From assembly GCF_003334815.1 (NCBI RefSeq), contig NZ_QOWO01000016.1: a stretch of DNA of 64,000 nucleotides. One strand, 5' to 3'. This DNA is from Escherichia coli. Its GTDB lineage: Bacteria > Pseudomonadota > Gammaproteobacteria > Enterobacterales > Enterobacteriaceae. A model generated the notes under the pieces. The model saw nothing but the letters and a program-made list of their open reading frames with translations. It was not told the origin of the DNA and ran no database searches. Every line of letters starts with the position of its first letter. Position 1 is the stretch's first letter. Below, piece by piece: positions 16,372-23,935 of the stretch. Both the position numbers and the translations under genes were made by a program.

Positions 16372-16815
16372 ATGAATAAAGTTAAAAGTGTTTACAGCCC
16401 GTCCGAAAATGCAATCTACAACGCAGCGCTATATGAAAGTTATATCAAGGAGGGGACATGGCCGCAGGATGGTATTGAAATCAGCGATGAGGATGCTGTC
16501 AGATTTAATGGGGGAAATAAGCCAACAGGAAAAATGCTGGGAATGGTTTCAGGGACCCTTGCATGGGTTGATGAGCCGCCGCTTTCACCAGAACAGAAAA
16601 TATCAGATGCAGAAAACATGAAAGCCACATTTCGTGCAAAAGCTGACAGTGAAATATCCTGGCGTCAGGATGCTGTTGATGCTGGTATCGCAACTGATGA
16701 AGAAACTTCAACTCTCACCCAATGGAAGAAATACCGTGTGCTGCTGATGCGTGTTGATACTTCAACAGCACCCGATATTGAATGGCCTACGCCTCCGGCA
16801 GTCCAGGCCAGATGA
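16372..16815 (+). CDS. tail fibre assembly protein (for the currently expressed fibre variant)
   Basis: 147-aa ORF 4 nt after the fibre stop. The C-terminus ...WKKYRVLLMRVDTSTAPDIEWPTPP is the conserved Tfa chaperone tail. Confidence 0.8.
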   Translation: MNKVKSVYSPSENAIYNAALYESYIKEGTWPQDGIEISDEDAVRFNGGNKPTGKMLGMVSGTLAWVDEPPLSPEQKISDAENMKATFRAKADSEISWRQDAVDAGIATDEETSTLTQWKKYRVLLMRVDTSTAPDIEWPTPPAVQAR

Positions 16816-17389
16816 CGTCCGGCGCTGTGCTGGTATCTGTTGCCGTCACCGCGTCAATGTAATCCAGCACGGCGTTAAGTCGGGTTGTTTCTGCCGGCGT
16901 CAACTTCCGTCCGGCCTGTAATTTCAACTGAATCAGACTGATGGAAGCCATTGCAGCATCAATCAGATACTGGCGCTGTGCTTCTGCCGCTTCTACTGCG
17001 GCGCTATGCTGTGCCTCAGTATCCGTCACCCATTTCTCACCATCCCATTTATCGTATGGCGTTAATGGGGCGATAGTGGTTGTATTATCAGGGTAATCAC
17101 CCGGAGCTGTGATTTCTTTGGCGTCTCCCGTTTCGGTGCTATAGACAATTTCACCACGATGGTCTGACACATATTCCCATGATTTTAAATCCATAGAACG
17201 GCAGATAGCATAACCCGCCTTATATGTGCCAGGTTCATCCAGACAGGAATATGCAGGGATACCGACACCAATGGCAAGATATTCATTTGAAGTAGAAATA
17301 TATTCCCGAGTTTTACCATCATAGTTATAGACGGTAATATTCCCCGCCTTCGTGGCAATAAGCTCGCTATTTAATACGGCGTTATCCAT
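16787..17389 (-). CDS. tfaE: tail fibre assembly protein TfaE-like (silent orientation)
   Basis: 200 aa, near-identical as I recall to K-12 e14 TfaE (MDNAVLNSELIA.KAGNITVYNYDG.TREYISTSNEYLA...). Convergent with the other tfa gene, overlapping it by 29 nt. Confidence 0.88.
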   Translation of the reverse strand: MDNAVLNSELIATKAGNITVYNYDGKTREYISTSNEYLAIGVGIPAYSCLDEPGTYKAGYAICRSMDLKSWEYVSDHRGEIVYSTETGDAKEITAPGDYPDNTTTIAPLTPYDKWDGEKWVTDTEAQHSAAVEAAEAQRQYLIDAAMASISLIQLKLQAGRKLTPAETTRLNAVLDYIDAVTATDTSTAPDVIWPGLPEA

Positions 17390-17882
17390 TATGCAGCCCT
17401 CACGATATAGTTAAATGCAATATTTCGTGGACGGGTTTCACTCCCGCCAGTATTACCGATACTCCCTCGTGAATGAAGTGTCGGTGATGGGATCAGACTC
17501 CCTCCTGTATTTGTGGCATCAAGTCCCCGTCCTTGTGTGTATGTCTTTTTGAAAATCGTAGCCAGTTCCCATTCATCTTTTGTGTCGTAACCATCATTGG
17601 CAACAACAATATGGCGGTGTTTTTCCAGCATCCCTGTCTGAATGCTCAATAAAACACGTCCTGCATCAATACCGCGCCCGTCATCCCAGCCACGAATAAA
17701 CTCACCACGTAAATCAGGCAATTTATTTGTCGGATAAGCCTTTGCCAGTTCCGGGTATTCTTCAGCAGAAAAAGCCGCACCGTTGCATTTCAGCCAGCCT
17801 GTTGGCGGTGTGGCTGAAGGCCATGGAACAGGCACACCAACAGGTAATGCAGAGCCTTCTCCCAAACCAACGTTTATGAAAA
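17389..17882 (-). CDS. stfE: promoterless alternative tail-fibre C-terminal cassette (StfE-like, collar-type receptor-binding domain)
   Basis: The open frame enters from the right crossover site (...GLGE|GSALPVGVPVPWPSATPPTGWLKCNGAAFSAEEYPELAKAY...PDLRGEFIRGWDDGRGID...ETRPRNIAFNYIVRAA). The MMPFARYF... start in the track lies outside the segment and is not a real N-terminus. Confidence 0.78.
17857..17882. promoter_or_regulatory. right crossover site for the Pin-family invertase
   Basis: TTCTCCCAAACC-AA-CGTTTATGAAAA: two imperfect 12-bp half-sites around a central AA, matching the architecture of Din-family sites. Confidence 0.7.
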
Positions 17883-17936
17883 TGCAGAAATAACGAGCAA
17901 ATGGCATCATTCCTGCTTTTGTCAGGGAGATCTACT

Positions 17937-18491
17937 ATGCTTATTGGCTATGTACGTGTGTCAACAAATGACCAGAACACAGATCTACAACGTAATGCGC
18001 TGAACTGTGCAGGATGCGAGCTGATTTTTGAAGACAAGATAAGCGGTACAAAGTCCGAAAGGCCGGGACTGAAAAAACTGCTCAGGACATTATCGGCAGG
18101 TGACACTCTGGTTGTCTGGAAGCTGGATCGGCTGGGGCGTAGTATGCGGCATCTGGTCATTCTGGTTGAGGAGTTGCGCGAACGTGGCGTTAATTTTCGC
18201 AGCCTGACGGATGCTATTGATACCAGCACACCGATGGGGCGTTTTTTCTTTCATGTGATGGGTGCCCTGGCTGAAATGGAACGAGAACTGATTGTTGAAC
18301 GAACAAAAGCTGGACTGGAAGCTGCTCGCGCACAGGGACGAATTGGGGGACGTCGTCCCAAACTTACACCAGAACAATGGGCGCAGGCCGGGCGATTAAT
18401 TGCATCAGGCGTTCCTCGCCAGAAGGTGGCGATCATCTATGATGTTGGTGTATCGACACTGTATAAGAAGTTTCCGGTCGGAGATAAATGA
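17937..18491 (+). CDS. pin: serine DNA invertase (Pin/Gin/Cin/Hin family)
   Basis: MLIGYVRVSTNDQNTDLQRNAL... contains the catalytic Ser motif, with a C-terminal HTH. Near-identical to e14 PinE as I recall. I prefer ATG 17937 (GGGAGA SD) over the 17901 start in the track. Confidence 0.93.
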   Translation: MLIGYVRVSTNDQNTDLQRNALNCAGCELIFEDKISGTKSERPGLKKLLRTLSAGDTLVVWKLDRLGRSMRHLVILVEELRERGVNFRSLTDAIDTSTPMGRFFFHVMGALAEMERELIVERTKAGLEAARAQGRIGGRRPKLTPEQWAQAGRLIASGVPRQKVAIIYDVGVSTLYKKFPVGDK

Positions 18492-18590
18492 AACCGCAGG
18501 CTCGTCGTATGCAAGAAAGTGCTGCGGCTGGCTGGTTAACTTCCGATAGTGAGAGTATTGAATGATTTCCAGTCGTTATCGATTTTACGT
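18489..18590. repeat. 102-bp direct repeat, copy R1 (abuts the pin stop codon)
   Basis: TGAAACCGCAGGCTCGTCGTATGCAAGAAAGTGCTGCGG...GATTTTACGT. About 95/102 identical to 21774-21875 by hand alignment. Confidence 0.85.
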
Positions 18591-18849: not shown

Positions 18850-19104
18850 ATGGGTAAGATTATTCGGTGGATGCTTTTTTTTGTCGGATTATTTTCCGTT
18901 GCATATTCAATATATAAATATCAACAATCTCCGCAGAGTTTATTTTACATAATCGGTGCTATAGGAACACTTTTATCTGCTACATGTGGTTTACTTGAGA
19001 TAAAAAGCAAGAAATCGAATGGCAGTATAACTGCTGGCGACAACTCAAATATCGTTGTCATTAATGGTTCAGAAAACACATCAAAAATAAAAAATAGAGG
19101 GTGA
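18850..19104 (+). CDS. small two-TM membrane protein with polar GDNSN-motif tail (unknown function)
   Basis: 84-aa ORF with GAAGAGG SD 6 nt upstream. Hydrophobic helices at about residues 6-22 and 31-50. Very AT-rich codon usage. Its stop overlaps the next gene's start region. Confidence 0.65.
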   Translation: MGKIIRWMLFFVGLFSVAYSIYKYQQSPQSLFYIIGAIGTLLSATCGLLEIKSKKSNGSITAGDNSNIVVINGSENTSKIKNRG

Positions 19105-19106
19105 TT

Positions 19107-20042
19107 ATGTTTGATAAAGAGGTTAACTTAGGAGACAACTCAAACGTAGTAAAAACAGAAGGGAATAACAACACAACAATAATAAATAATTTTGATGAGA
19201 AGTTTATAGGTCACGTTGTAAGATCCATGCTTTATGAAAGTATGCCTTCCTTTCAAGAAGAAGCTAGAAAAAAGATAATTGCGTCAACTGATGAATACAT
19301 TAGAGAGCTAATATCTGAGTTAGTAATTCAAAAAACAGATGCAGATACATTAAACCAAAAACTATCAACGCCTGACGTTCAATACTCTCTTTTTGAATCA
19401 GCTAAATGTTTTGCAAAAAATCCAGAAAGAACAGCAAAATCAACTCTGTTAAATTTAGTTGTAAAAAAAATAAATGAATTGGATGGAGATCATGAAGAGC
19501 TTTCCTCTATCGATCTGGCAATAAACGTCGCTACAAAACTTAGCGTAAAGCAAATAAGGTATATATCTTTAATATACTATATTAAAGATATTGTAAAAAT
19601 ATCACAAGATAGTGCCGGCGCTTATTGCATAATAGATCCTTCAAAAGATACAACAGAAGAAGTTGACGATTTCTTTTTATTCCCAAATGATATAAAAAGG
19701 AACAAGCAGGATGTTTATGATCTTTATATCGATCTATATAACAATCAAATGGATGTTGTATTTAAAGATGAAGAGATTGGCCCAGTTGATTATAGTATGC
19801 TTATAGCATTGGGTTGTATCATTCAACCTGCATTCCCTCAGCGAACATTTGTACAAAATGTAAAGAAAAGAACAGGATTAGATTTAAACGACAGCGAACA
19901 AAAATTAAAGCTATCGACATTCATTGAGAAAATAGAAAAAGCTATAGAGATAGATTCTGTCGATTATATAGTATTAACTACGGTTGGTAGACAAATAGCT
20001 AACGCCTATATATCAACAAGAATGAGATTAGTTAACTTATAA
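19107..20042 (+). CDS. hypothetical soluble protein (~311 aa) with N-terminal GDNSN-motif; possible LPO_1073/Vpar_1526-like family (unverified recollection)
   Basis: Long ORF (track 19101..20042, GTG). I prefer ATG 19107 with AGAGGG SD 6 nt upstream. No TM segment. Followed by a strong terminator. Confidence 0.75.
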   Translation: MFDKEVNLGDNSNVVKTEGNNNTTIINNFDEKFIGHVVRSMLYESMPSFQEEARKKIIASTDEYIRELISELVIQKTDADTLNQKLSTPDVQYSLFESAKCFAKNPERTAKSTLLNLVVKKINELDGDHEELSSIDLAINVATKLSVKQIRYISLIYYIKDIVKISQDSAGAYCIIDPSKDTTEEVDDFFLFPNDIKRNKQDVYDLYIDLYNNQMDVVFKDEEIGPVDYSMLIALGCIIQPAFPQRTFVQNVKKRTGLDLNDSEQKLKLSTFIEKIEKAIEIDSVDYIVLTTVGRQIANAYISTRMRLVNL

Positions 20043-20103: not shown

Positions 20104-20250
20104 TTAAGAGTAGTGAACAAACCACTCGTCAGCAAACTCCCAAGTATCTTTCAGAGTCTCCTGAACAAAAGCCTTAGCAGAATCCTTATCTGCGGTGTAC
20201 GTAACAGGAAAATCATCGCTATGGTAGCTTTGACGCTCACCCCCATACCA
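20104..20250 (-). pseudogene. truncated DinI-like gene remnant (C-terminal ~45 codons, no start)
   Basis: Minus-strand translation is ...[37 protein letters not shown], which parallels the C-terminus of the intact gene at 21881-22129 (...[33 protein letters not shown]). There is no in-frame ATG, and an upstream in-frame stop lies at 20266-20268. Confidence 0.7.
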
Positions 20251-20445: not shown

Positions 20446-20805
20446 ATGTTAACGCCGTTTGGTAAGACAGTAAGAAAAATGCGCATAGACTTGGGGCTTA
20501 CGCTTAAAAGCATGGCTGAGGCTATGGGCATGACCTCGTCTTATCTTTCAGCGATCGAAACTGGTAAAAGGGCGGTCACTAAGCCCGTGCTTGATAGCAT
20601 CATTAGCTATTTTAATGCGGATGAAAAACAAAAAGAAAAGCTTATCAGTGCAGCTCGTGACTCTCAGCAGTCAGTAGAGATCAGCTTGTCAGGTAAGAAT
20701 GGCCACGCTCGTGAAGTCGCAATTGCGTTCGCTCGTAGTTTTGATGAATTAAATGAAGAAGACTTCCGTAATTTACGACAGATTTTGAATCGAAAACAGC
20801 AGTAG
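20446..20805 (+). CDS. XRE-family helix-turn-helix transcriptional regulator
   Basis: 119 aa. The N-terminus FGKTVRKMRIDLGLTLKSMAEAMGMTSSYLSAIETGKRAVT is a classic Cro/C1 HTH. GGAGAAG SD upstream. Confidence 0.85.
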   Translation: MLTPFGKTVRKMRIDLGLTLKSMAEAMGMTSSYLSAIETGKRAVTKPVLDSIISYFNADEKQKEKLISAARDSQQSVEISLSGKNGHAREVAIAFARSFDELNEEDFRNLRQILNRKQQ

Positions 20806-20813
20806 GAGGCGGC

Positions 20814-21335
20814 TTGAGCGGACAAGATTATCGTGTACCTCCGCAGAATCGTGAATCAATACGTTCTATCGTCACATCTCTGCGGAGCGCATTTGGTATT
20901 ACTGGGCTTAAATTCCCTGTAATGGAGGTAATTGAGTTCGCATTGCCTCAGTTGATCCCGGATTTTGAGTTCCACATTGGTGGCATGAAAGAAATGGGAG
21001 AAACGCATGGTCTTACGTACCCACAGGAACATTTATTGATTCTGCGCGAAGACATTTACGAAGGCGCTTTGAATGGGGTAGGGCGAGATAGGATGACTGC
21101 CGCGCATGAATTGGGTCATCTTCTTATGCACAGGAACATCGCATTTGCTCGTTCTGCCCCAGGGGTAAAAATCCGCCCTTTTGAGAGTAGTGAATGGCAA
21201 GCTAAATGTTTTAGTGGTGAGTTATTAGTGCCGGCTATGCATGTCAGTATTTTAAAAGGTATGACGGCTGAGGATGTTGCTAAGGCATGCGGAGTTTCAT
21301 TAGTGGCAGCGCGTTATCAGCTAGACAGAATGTAA
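20814..21335 (+). CDS. ImmA/IrrE-family zinc metallopeptidase (COG2856-type, HEXXH)
   Basis: 173 aa. Contains ...MTAAHELGHLLMH... (HEXXH) plus a downstream E (FSGELLVP). TTG start at 20814 with AGGAGG at 20804-20809, which overlaps the XRE stop and implies coupling. Confidence 0.82.
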   Translation: MSGQDYRVPPQNRESIRSIVTSLRSAFGITGLKFPVMEVIEFALPQLIPDFEFHIGGMKEMGETHGLTYPQEHLLILREDIYEGALNGVGRDRMTAAHELGHLLMHRNIAFARSAPGVKIRPFESSEWQAKCFSGELLVPAMHVSILKGMTAEDVAKACGVSLVAARYQLDRM

Positions 21336-21492
21336 AAACCCCTTGCTTGGCGCCAACCAGTGCAAGGGGCTTTAGGTGATGAATCCAAGAGGCATCACCA
21401 CCGTGAACAGCTTCGATAGACAGCCTGAAATTAACACCTTCAGGGAAGATGTTCAAGGGAAAAATCTCTCTTGGTAAGGAGGTGTTTTATGA

Positions 21493-21642
21493 ATGGGTTT
21501 GAAATCAATTGCTTCAAAAGCGGCGCCCAAAGGGTTCCGTTGGGTTTTCTGCCGTTACCGCAAGGTGCGTGGGAAATCAAAAAAAGTCCTTGATGCTCAT
21601 GATTACGGGTACGAGGCGTGGGCATTTTTAGTGCGCTGCTAA
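21493..21642 (+). CDS. untracked small basic protein (49 aa), unknown function
   Basis: My translation: MGLKSIASKAAPKGFRWVFCRYRKVRGKSKKVLDAHDYGYEAWAFLVRC* (12 K/R vs 3 D/E). AAGGAGG at 21476-21482. Stop is 13 nt before a strong terminator. An alternative ATG at 21489 gives a 34-aa ORF in another frame. Confidence 0.45.
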   Translation: MGLKSIASKAAPKGFRWVFCRYRKVRGKSKKVLDAHDYGYEAWAFLVRC

Positions 21643-21654
21643 GGGTTAGTATTT

Positions 21655-21678
21655 AAGGCACCTGCGGGTGCCTTTTTT
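21655..21678 (+). terminator. rho-independent terminator
   Basis: AAGGCACC-tgcg-GGTGCCTT followed by TTTTT. Confidence 0.72.
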
Positions 21679-21773
21679 GTATCCTCTGACCCGATTGGTG
21701 TCTTGCTGAGCCTGATAACTACCAATTTTTGTTATTACTATTCTACTATCGCTCAATCATGATTGGCGGGAGT

Positions 21774-21875
21774 TGAAACCGCAGGCACGTCGTATGCAAG
21801 AACGTGCTGCGGCTGGCTGGTGAACTTCCGATAGTGCGAGTATTGAATGATTTCCAGCCGTTACAGATTTTACGT
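21774..21875. repeat. 102-bp direct repeat, copy R2 (ends 5 nt before the DinI-like gene stop)
   Basis: TGAAACCGCAGGCACGTCGTATGCAAGAACGTGCTGCGG...GATTTTACGT. See R1. Confidence 0.85.
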
Positions 21876-21880
21876 GCTAA

Positions 21881-22129
21881 TTAGTGAACAAACCACTCGT
21901 CAGCAGACTCCCAGGTATCTTTCAGAGTTTCCTGAACAAAAGTTTTAGCTGAATCTTTATCGGCGGTGCGCGTAACAGAAAGGCCATCGTTGCTGGTGGC
22001 TTTTACGATCACCTCTACATCGTCATAACGCTTACTGATGCGTCGAGTTAATTCTTCCTTTAACGCATCCACAGCACCGTTTGGCATTTTAGTCATTTTC
22101 TCTTTAGCTATGCAGATCTCAATACGCAT
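21881..22129 (-). CDS. DinI-family DNA-damage-inducible protein (prophage-encoded)
   Basis: 82 aa, [11 protein letters not shown]...[16 protein letters not shown]. Same length class and C-terminal motif as E. coli DinI. Two LexA boxes lie immediately upstream. Confidence 0.88.
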
Positions 22130-22142
22130 AAAAATCCCTCTA

Positions 22143-22162
22143 CACTGTGTTTGTATACAGTG
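22143..22162. promoter_or_regulatory. LexA (SOS) box 1
   Basis: CACTGTGTTTGTATACAGTG fits CTGT-N8-ACAG. It lies 14 nt upstream of the DinI-like start codon. Confidence 0.72.
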
Positions 22163-22170
22163 TTATTTTT

Positions 22171-22190
22171 AACTGTATAAATAAACAGTG
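22171..22190. promoter_or_regulatory. LexA (SOS) box 2
   Basis: AACTGTATAAATAAACAGTG fits CTGT-N8-ACAG. It lies 8 nt from box 1. Confidence 0.72.
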
Positions 22191-22348
22191 TCAATGGAAC
22201 AAAGATTGCTGCATGTACAAATGTTCTTTGGCTACAAATACACCTACTGATCATGTTCTGCTATGCTCTGATACCTCCAAAATGTACAATCAGCGGCATG
22301 AATTTTTCTTTGTACATATGATTGTACATAATTAAAGAGACAACAATT

Positions 22349-23935
22349 ATGACAAGCCTTTTGGCCGCAGAGGTAGCGAAAAGAAGAACCTTTGCAATTA
22401 TTTCTCACCCGGACGCCGGTAAAACTACCATCACCGAGAAGGTGCTGCTGTTCGGACAGGCCATTCAGACCGCCGGTACAGTAAAAGGCCGTGGCTCTAA
22501 CCAGCACGCTAAGTCGGACTGGATGGAGATGGAAAAGCAGCGTGGGATCTCCATTACCACGTCTGTGATGCAGTTTCCGTATCACGACTGCCTGGTTAAC
22601 CTGCTCGACACCCCGGGGCACGAAGACTTCTCGGAAGATACCTATCGTACCCTGACGGCGGTGGACTGCTGCCTGATGGTTATCGACGCTGCAAAAGGTG
22701 TTGAAGATCGTACCCGCAAGCTGATGGAAGTTACCCGTCTGCGCGACACGCCGATCCTCACCTTTATGAACAAACTTGACCGTGATATCCGCGACCCGAT
22801 GGAGCTGCTCGATGAAGTTGAGAACGAGCTGAAAATCGGCTGTGCACCGATCACCTGGCCGATTGGCTGCGGCAAGCTGTTTAAAGGCGTTTACCACCTT
22901 TATAAAGATGAAACCTATCTCTATCAGAGCGGTAAAGGCCACACCATTCAGGAAGTCCGCATTGTTAAAGGGCTGAATAACCCGGATCTCGACGCTGCGG
23001 TTGGTGAAGATCTGGCGCAGCAGCTGCGTGATGAACTGGAGCTGGTGAAAGGCGCGTCTAACGAGTTCGACAAAGAATTGTTCCTTGCGGGCGAAATCAC
23101 TCCGGTATTCTTCGGTACTGCGCTGGGTAACTTCGGCGTTGATCATATGCTGGATGGCCTGGTGGAGTGGGCACCTGCGCCGATGCCGCGTCAGACTGAT
23201 ACCCGTACTGTAGAAGCGAGCGAAGACAAATTTACCGGCTTCGTATTTAAAATTCAGGCCAACATGGACCCGAAACACCGTGACCGCGTGGCGTTTATGC
23301 GCGTGGTATCCGGTAAATATGAAAAAGGCATGAAGCTGCGCCAGGTGCGCACTGCGAAAGATGTGGTGATCTCCGACGCGCTGACCTTTATGGCGGGCGA
23401 CCGTTCGCACGTTGAAGAAGCGTATCCGGGCGATATCCTCGGCCTGCATAACCACGGCACTATTCAGATCGGCGACACCTTTACCCAGGGTGAGATGATG
23501 AAGTTCACTGGTATTCCGAACTTCGCGCCGGAACTGTTCCGTCGTATCCGCCTGAAAGATCCGCTGAAGCAAAAACAGCTGCTCAAAGGGCTGGTACAGC
23601 TTTCCGAAGAGGGCGCGGTGCAGGTGTTCCGTCCGATCTCCAACAACGACCTGATCGTTGGTGCAGTTGGTGTGCTGCAGTTTGATGTGGTGGTATCGCG
23701 CCTGAAGAGCGAATACAACGTTGAAGCAGTGTATGAGTCAGTCAACGTTGCCACTGCCCGCTGGGTAGAATGTGCGGACGCGAAGAAATTCGAAGAGTTC
23801 AAGCGTAAGAACGAAAGCCAACTGGCGCTTGATGGCGGCGATAACCTCGCTTACATCGCTACCAGCATGGTAAACCTGCGCCTGGCGCAGGAACGTTATC
23901 CGGACGTTCAGTTCCACCAGACCCGCGAGCATTAA
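22349..23935 (+). CDS. prfC: peptide chain release factor 3 (RF3), with altered extreme N-terminus
   Basis: From residue ~9 onward ([20 protein letters not shown]...) it matches K-12 PrfC as I recall. I prefer ATG 22349 ([13 protein letters not shown]...), giving 528 aa. Confidence 0.93.

Follow-up and report, generated by a model that had tools for sequence, protein, structure and literature searches.

Integration of a prophage into the 5' end of Escherichia coli prfC very probably leaves the gene with a phage-borne surrogate start

We analysed a window of 64,000 nucleotides of Escherichia coli DNA in which the last genes of a prophage adjoin prfC, the gene for RF3. The prfC coding sequence occupies 22349-23935 on the plus strand and encodes 528 residues from an ATG at 22349, while the listed open reading frame takes a TTG farther upstream in the same frame (22322) as its start. 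The product has Pfam matches to GTP_EFTU and RF3_C. The features at and around the 5' end of the gene are as follows.

21655-21684, plus strand: intrinsic terminator-like hairpin (8-bp stem with five G-C pairs, then TTTTGTATCC, a T-run) that ends the plus-strand HTH/ImmA cargo operon
21881-22129, minus strand: DinI-family gene, the last phage gene before attR (PF06183, E 1.2e-19; DinI-like annotation in homologous lysogens and phages)
22145-22188, no strand: two LexA boxes, CTGTGTTTGTATACAG (22145-22160) and CTGTATAAATAAACAG (22173-22188), overlapping the dinI promoter
22195-22348, plus strand: attP-derived AT-rich arm (about 98.5-99.2% identity to the attP region of PhiR63_1, 2H10 and cdtI)
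22349-22396, plus strand: surrogate 5' end of prfC, phage-supplied, codons 1-16 (att alignment; mini-ORF in free-phage attP)
22397-22410, no strand: identity core ATTATTTCTCACCC, common to attB, attP, attL and attR, the crossover site
22411-23935, plus strand: rest of prfC (RF3), of host origin, second half of the P-loop motif through to the stop (alignment to prophage-free genomes; Pfam)

[quoted passage not shown] The altered frame is indeed present, with its start codon corrected by one base to 22349. The DNA 5' of this ATG contains the DinI gene and the two LexA boxes, and its G+C content is 32% (22130-22348) as opposed to 54% in the host part of prfC. K-R-R is written AAA AGA AGA at 22379-22387 (codons 11-13), and the two AGA triplets at codons 12 and 13 are the only AGA or AGG among the 31 arginine codons of the coding sequence, the remaining 29 being CGT or CGC. 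The N-terminus that had been given for K-12 PrfC also matches that of a K-12-derived genome.

The sequence between dinI and the ATG has the character of a phage arm. The motif CTGT-N8-ACAG occurs twice in the 64-kb window, both times within the same 44 bp, where it overlaps a minus-strand dinI promoter with 10 of 12 consensus positions (-35 TTGACA at 22194-22189, -10 AAAAAT at 22170-22165, spacer 18). The arm contains four (T)TGTACA repeats (22214-22220, 22283-22289, 22310-22316 and 22322-22328), and the motif recurs in the opposite arm beside int. Related integrases carry the Arm DNA-binding domain PF13356, and these candidate arm-type integrase sites are probably what the repeats represent. 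An Rfam search of 21400-22600 returned only sub-threshold matches (STnc130, CssrB-like), all outside the junction, and a known RNA family was rejected on these grounds as an explanation of the arm. The match to STnc130, an enterobacterial sRNA, covers 21646-21758 on the minus strand, just upstream of the dinI 3' end, and at 30 bits (E 0.03) falls short of the gathering score, which is 55.

To place the crossover, we aligned five att sequences: attB of K-12, attP of phage cdtI, attL and two attR. The results show a 14-bp identity core at 22397-22410, which corresponds to nt 52-65 of prfC in K-12 numbering and spans nt 46-65 in some phages. The sequence-only reading had expected the attB core within the first ~40-60 nt of the gene, close to the measured position. 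On its left side the core is limited by GCA in the phage versus GCC in the host, and on its right side attP and attL part from attB just past CACCC. All DNA to the left of the core is phage, and the core itself encodes I-I-S-H-P, the start of the RF3 P-loop. When compared with a K-12-derived locus, in which the order is rsmC-holD-rimI-yjjG-prfC-osmY, the window is unrelated 5' of the ATG and in codons 2-8, continues with a recoded block that specifies the same residues, and is identical from ATTATTTCTCACCC onward. One synonymous change from K-12 (AAG to AAA, in GGT AAA ACT at 22433) is located 23 nt beyond the right side of the core; as attP has no homology there, the change probably reflects polymorphism of the host rather than a phage origin.

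The window itself ends short of attL and int, and both were read in close relatives, of which the best genome match is 98% identical over 93% of the prophage part. The closest full lysogen, GPEC620-622, has the gene order yjjG, a 69-nt prfC stub, int, e14-like early genes, P27-type terminase, contractile tail, pinE, dinI, hybrid prfC and osmY. Its attL consists of the native promoter, ATGACGTTG...GCCATTATTTCTCACCC and then caataattaa, so that a 24-codon stub ORF with the first 22 native codons of prfC and the core stands ahead of int. A second E. coli locus (L006) likewise has the native promoter, these 22 codons and the core next to a tyrosine integrase gene. In free phage cdtI, attP reads ATGACAAGCCTTTTGGCCGCAGAGGTAGCGAAAAGAAGAACCTTTGCAATTATTTCTCACCCcaataattaa, with the integrase gene ~225 nt downstream, and bears the surrogate start as a mini-ORF that ends in NN and a stop directly past the core.

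The same arrangement is widespread. All 5426 complete E. coli genomes match 21650-22650 by megablast; 474 of them align through dinI, the junction and prfC, and most align only from ~22369 onward, within prfC. The 178-bp segment that joins the arm to the surrogate start (22215-22392) is present in 700 of the 5426 (13%, roughly one in eight), and in 30 of 30 records among the matches listed the arm match lies under an annotated prfC. The dinI-attP region is found at 96.6-99.2% identity in PhiR63_1, 2H10, cdtI and many Stx1a/Stx2c converting phages. In strain 510016, a prophage of the lambda-like siphovirus kind terminates in the same dinI-attR segment, indicating that the int-attP-dinI module is common to phages with different virion genes.

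Two of these results speak directly to the integration that had been proposed from the sequence. Prophage-free strains (K-12 and most of the 5426 genomes) have another upstream region and another N-terminus, and attL of the closest lysogen holds a matching prfC-derived core together with the original 22 codons; both outcomes favour the integration model. The further proposal that the phage carries a surrogate 5' end which keeps prfC intact agrees with the mini-ORF of the free phage and with the full-length hybrid frame at attR.

We therefore consider it very probable that 22130-22410 is the attR junction of a prfC-integrated temperate phage carrying a surrogate gene start. The phage combines e14-like early genes and a contractile tail with an int-attP-dinI module of the cdtI/Stx1 type. 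Its tyrosine integrase recombines attP and prfC through the 14-bp core, and attP brings an RBS-like sequence, an ATG and 16 codons immediately to the left of the core, including an AT-rich recoding of EVAKRRTFA. Integration thus creates a full-length hybrid prfC at attR and, as read in the relatives, leaves the gene's own promoter and RBS behind at attL together with its first 22 codons, in the stub before int.

The contributions of phage and host can be read off the junction. From the phage come the ATG, a weak SD-like AAGAG (22335-22339) that precedes it by nine bases, seven unrelated N-terminal codons and the recoded EVAKRRTFA block, and the host contributes prfC beginning with the I-I-S-H-P codons. 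The nine codons of the recoded block differ from those of the host at eight nucleotides, and all eight differences are synonymous, an outcome reached by none of 200,000 random placements of eight substitutions. Residues 1-8, which are replaced, belong to a stretch of RF3 that is free to vary among species, as seen in prfC stubs beside related integrases. The synonymous-only recoding is the strongest internal evidence in this analysis, and points to a translated surrogate segment under protein-level selection. Since the differences in the conserved block are all synonymous, and since the analogous SXT element is reported to supply a promoter and N-terminus, we infer that the hybrid prfC is translated and functional.

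How the hybrid gene would be transcribed is a separate question. Between yjjG and prfC, the candidate for the native prfC promoter (TTGCCT-16-TAAAAT) has a score of 13.1 bits, which none of 300 shuffles equals, and it stays behind at attL. If prfC is expressed, its transcription must then start inside phage DNA. A sigma-70 consensus scan of the plus strand of the arm gave no promoter, and a PWM scan of the same strand over the 220 bp from dinI to the ATG gave nothing above chance. The best match, TTTTCT-17-CATAAT at 22304-22332, reaches 9.0 bits, as do 75% of shuffles, and would leave a transcript leader of ~10 nt; an extended -10-like TGcTATGCT ending at 22267 scores 6.9 bits. Naming a specific plus-strand sigma-70 promoter in the arm was for this reason rejected. 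Of the replacement promoter and N-terminus put forward in the sequence-only reading, the N-terminus stands, and the promoter is one that we infer, no sigma-70 match rising above chance; transcription would come from a weak or non-consensus promoter within the 220-bp phage arm.

The predicted RNA structure around the start codon adds to this picture. The fold of 22320-22400 is far more stable than those of shuffled sequences (z = -4.4), with a stem in which TTGTACATAATT (22322-22333) pairs with AATTATGACAA (22345-22355) across the prfC start codon. In transcripts that start upstream of 22322, the predicted hairpin would sequester the AUG. It may be a translational feature, or merely reflect inverted integrase- or protein-binding sites in the DNA.

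These features speak against preserved function and bring up the explanation that the hybrid prfC is intact and yet silenced or strongly down-regulated. Integration would then amount to a knock-down that the cell tolerates, prfC being non-essential, and the surrogate start would be of little importance. The absence of a convincing promoter from the arm, the weak SD AAGAG, the tandem AGA at codons 12-13 and the AUG-sequestering hairpin predicted above all fit this explanation, and the terminator at 21655 would limit read-through towards prfC from the upstream cargo genes. Moreover, Ogura et al. 2007 (PMC2323221) called the transcription and translation of the hybrid gene unknown and described prfC as non-essential, and expression was measurably lower after integration of an analogous element in dusA (PMC8409611). 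Against it, the eight-out-of-eight synonymous recoding would be difficult to account for in a segment that was not both translated and under selection, Gifsy-1 retains the same RBS-ATG-surrogate-core design for lepA, and the insertion is carried by 13% of complete E. coli genomes, including lineages in which an ancestral insertion has been inferred (PMC10132054). Reduced expression of the hybrid prfC is a live alternative; the knock-down explanation as a whole is in our judgement unlikely.

A further explanation holds that the likeness between the phage and prfC 5' ends comes only from a need of the integrase for extended attP-attB DNA similarity at core-type sites. The arms do share GAGGT.GCGAA and AC.TTTGC beyond the 14-bp core, and next to the core there is an inverted repeat or hairpin in host and phage versions alike. 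However, third positions and both changeable positions of the arginine codons differ while the amino acids are kept, and an in-frame ATG, an SD-like sequence and seven unrelated N-terminal codons are needless for recombination. With residues conserved and DNA identity not, we rejected the idea that the surrogate is kept merely for DNA homology, and give it very little credence. Finally, the reading of the MTSLLAA start as a mere allelic variant of prfC independent of the prophage, which can draw only on the variation of RF3 N-termini between species, is refuted by the presence of that start within attP of free phage genomes, its co-occurrence with the phage arm and the displaced native start at attL, and its probability is negligible.

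Several other features of the prophage were recorded along with the surrogate start. Two pairs of direct repeats, 18489-18590 with 21774-21875 (93%, the spacer downstream of pin) and 20111-20218 with 21882-21989 (87%, a dinI 3' remnant), indicate that the pin-dinI cargo slot has been duplicated or stacked into two blocks, 18850-20042 and 20446-21335. The first block holds two genes, for an 84-aa predicted membrane protein and for a 313-aa protein that has no Pfam match and is annotated 'LPO_1073/Vpar_1526 family' in a related genome; it is possibly a defence or exclusion module. The second, between the dinI remnant and dinI, is a repressor/antirepressor-like pair that consists of an Xre-type HTH gene and, after it, a gene for an ImmA/IrrE M78 metallopeptidase; the strong terminator at 21655 follows the pair. 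Other prfC lysogens have defence-type cargo in the slots beside dinI and int (510016, L002 15562-18238; GPEC620-622, L004 3895-5490), comprising a reverse transcriptase accompanied by a SLATT gene that IS1 interrupts, and an anti-phage dCTP deaminase. Each end of the prophage has the look of a hotspot for cargo.

Farther into the prophage, a Pin/Hin-type serine invertase gene (17901-18491; Resolvase and HTH_7) adjoins opposed tail-fibre and fibre-assembly genes at 16372-16815 (plus strand) and 16787-17910 (minus strand). Judged by this gene arrangement, 16372-18491 is an invertible host-range segment. Such segments are also present in e14, P1 and Mu.

The exchange of 5' ends may also bear on int. 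At attL of GPEC620-622 (L004 6881-7266, minus strand), the native promoter and the 24-codon stub ORF are followed by int with no predicted terminator between them, and in lysogens int may be read from the host prfC promoter.

Integrase relatives were surveyed in one genome per species, scanned with an alignment of integrase homologues. At 19 loci with integrases 47-99% identical, spread over 15 or more genera within the Gamma- and Betaproteobacteria (including Escherichia, Pantoea, Serratia, Pseudomonas, Halomonas and Variovorax), a prfC stub cut just past ...TFAIISH-CC lies 200-237 nt upstream of int. The integrases of related lysogens are 97-100% identical to that of cdtI. No cluster of integrase homologues bears an SXT label, and the link to SXT comes from the literature. 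At nine loci whose integrases are 40-46% identical to the prfC type (L035, L037-L040, L042, L046, L048 and L058; Klebsiella, Enterobacter, Kluyvera, Edwardsiella, Acinetobacter and others), we found instead a lepA stub, MKNIRNFSIIAH.., ~210-225 nt upstream of int. For Gifsy-1, the identity of the integrase to the prfC type is 46%, and the reconstructed attP of this prophage (L086 1-60 and 48440-48491) runs from an ATG through the surrogate lepA codons MKNIRNFSIIAHIDN and a stop, then ~205 nt to int. Among the integrase relatives with neither stub, none adjoins a tRNA gene, and no further target was recognised in the short ORFs upstream of them.

At the level of sequence, sister integrase groups thus cut homologous P-loop codons (F-x-I-I-x-H / x-D) in the paralogous GTPase genes prfC and lepA, with recoded surrogate starts in both. 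This suggests that att specificity shifted between paralogues along conserved G1-motif DNA. The joint reading, in which att specificity follows paralogues and integration swaps the regulatory inputs of int and RF3, is put forward tentatively, and we hold it to be doubtful. In the literature searched, no paper linking the prfC and lepA sites was found, and unpublished status cannot be claimed.

Replacement of the prfC N-terminus by a prophage is already known: it was described in 2007 by Ogura et al., and it is known for cdtI and for SXT/R391 ICEs. In EHEC O103, an Stx1 phage in prfC was found to change a short N-terminal region of RF3 and to deprive the gene of its own RBS and promoter (Ogura et al. 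2007, PMC2323221). Stx1a and Stx2c phages occupy prfC in CC119 and O103:H2, and in later surveys prfC is a routine Stx-phage locus (PMC10132054). The integrase of a cdt1 phage clusters with IntSXT, both targeting prfC (Smyshlyaev et al. 2021, PMC8138268). The 5' end of prfC is also where SXT/R391 ICEs insert (PMC2786100, PMC3715440, PMC4755238), with Hochhut & Waldor 1999 given for SXT, as cited in PMC8409611, PMC2786100 and PMC3715440. The assignment of prfC to the integration sites of lambdoid and Stx-type prophages, stated in the sequence-only reading, is in line with this literature (PMC2323221, PMC10132054, PMC8138268).

The prophage studied here resembles the Stx1-O103 phage in locus and consequence, and its dinI-attP arm recurs in Stx1a/Stx2c phage records with 96.6% identity. 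It differs in its P27-type terminase, contractile tail, Pin-invertible fibres and e14-like early genes; the window is without stx, and only the int-attP-dinI module is common to it and the Stx phages. Phage cdtI (NC_009514), a CDT-I converting lambdoid phage described by Asakura et al. 2007, as cited in PMC8138268, has an attP region 98.5% identical to 21880-22395, with the same mini-ORF, core and dinI neighbour. Unlike our prophage, it is a lambda-like siphovirus and carries cdtABC in the cargo slot beside dinI, which here holds HTH/ImmA and the uncharacterised two-gene cargo. SXT/R391 elements enter the same end of the same target gene, and the literature links their integrase to that of the cdt1 phage in one cluster (PMC8138268), yet SXT is a conjugative element and not a phage. 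Gifsy-1 of Salmonella has the same design at lepA (RBS, ATG, surrogate codons, core, ~205 nt, int), with the cut in a paralogous P-loop and AGA for Arg, whereas its target (lepA/EF4), core sequence and arm repeats are different. IMEVchUSA3, one of the dusA IMEs, likewise integrates in the 5' end of its target and provides a new N-terminus, together with a new promoter shown by lacZ fusion (PMC8409611), but target and element type are unrelated.

In icd, the elements e14 and phage 21 substitute the 3' end of the gene and leave its promoter and RBS untouched. As in prfC, they insert in a conserved coding gene, with a phage-borne substitute that keeps the frame intact, and our prophage shares e14-type genes (annotated ymfK/T/L/R/Q and pinE). 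In prfC, by contrast, it is the 5' end that is exchanged, along with every expression signal. The junction is not an e14-type icd integration: it lies in prfC, flanked by osmY and yjjG, and only non-integration genes are e14-like. The analogy to e14 and icd drawn from the sequence is consequently sound in principle and wrong as to the end of the gene, nearer precedents being SXT in prfC, Gifsy-1 in lepA and the IMEs in dusA.

As prfC is a catalogued prophage and ICE site, the finding in itself adds little to the list of such sites. It bears on how the site is scored: Bobay et al. 2013, in a large survey, counted prfC among prophage-'disrupted' genes (PMC3603311), and the synonymous-only recoding argues for a preserved gene and suggests that this score is an over-call. 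The targeting of the prfC and lepA P-loops by sister integrases offers an example, modest in scope, of how integration specificity may evolve. The practical point concerns the level of RF3 in those E. coli genomes, about one in eight, that have such a prophage, Stx and CDT lysogens included. If the proposed reading is true, RF3 in these lysogens would depend on a weak phage arm with AGA-AGA and an AUG-sequestering hairpin, and int would stand behind the strong native prfC promoter. RF3 dosage, and hence termination fidelity, might then differ in 13% of E. coli genomes.
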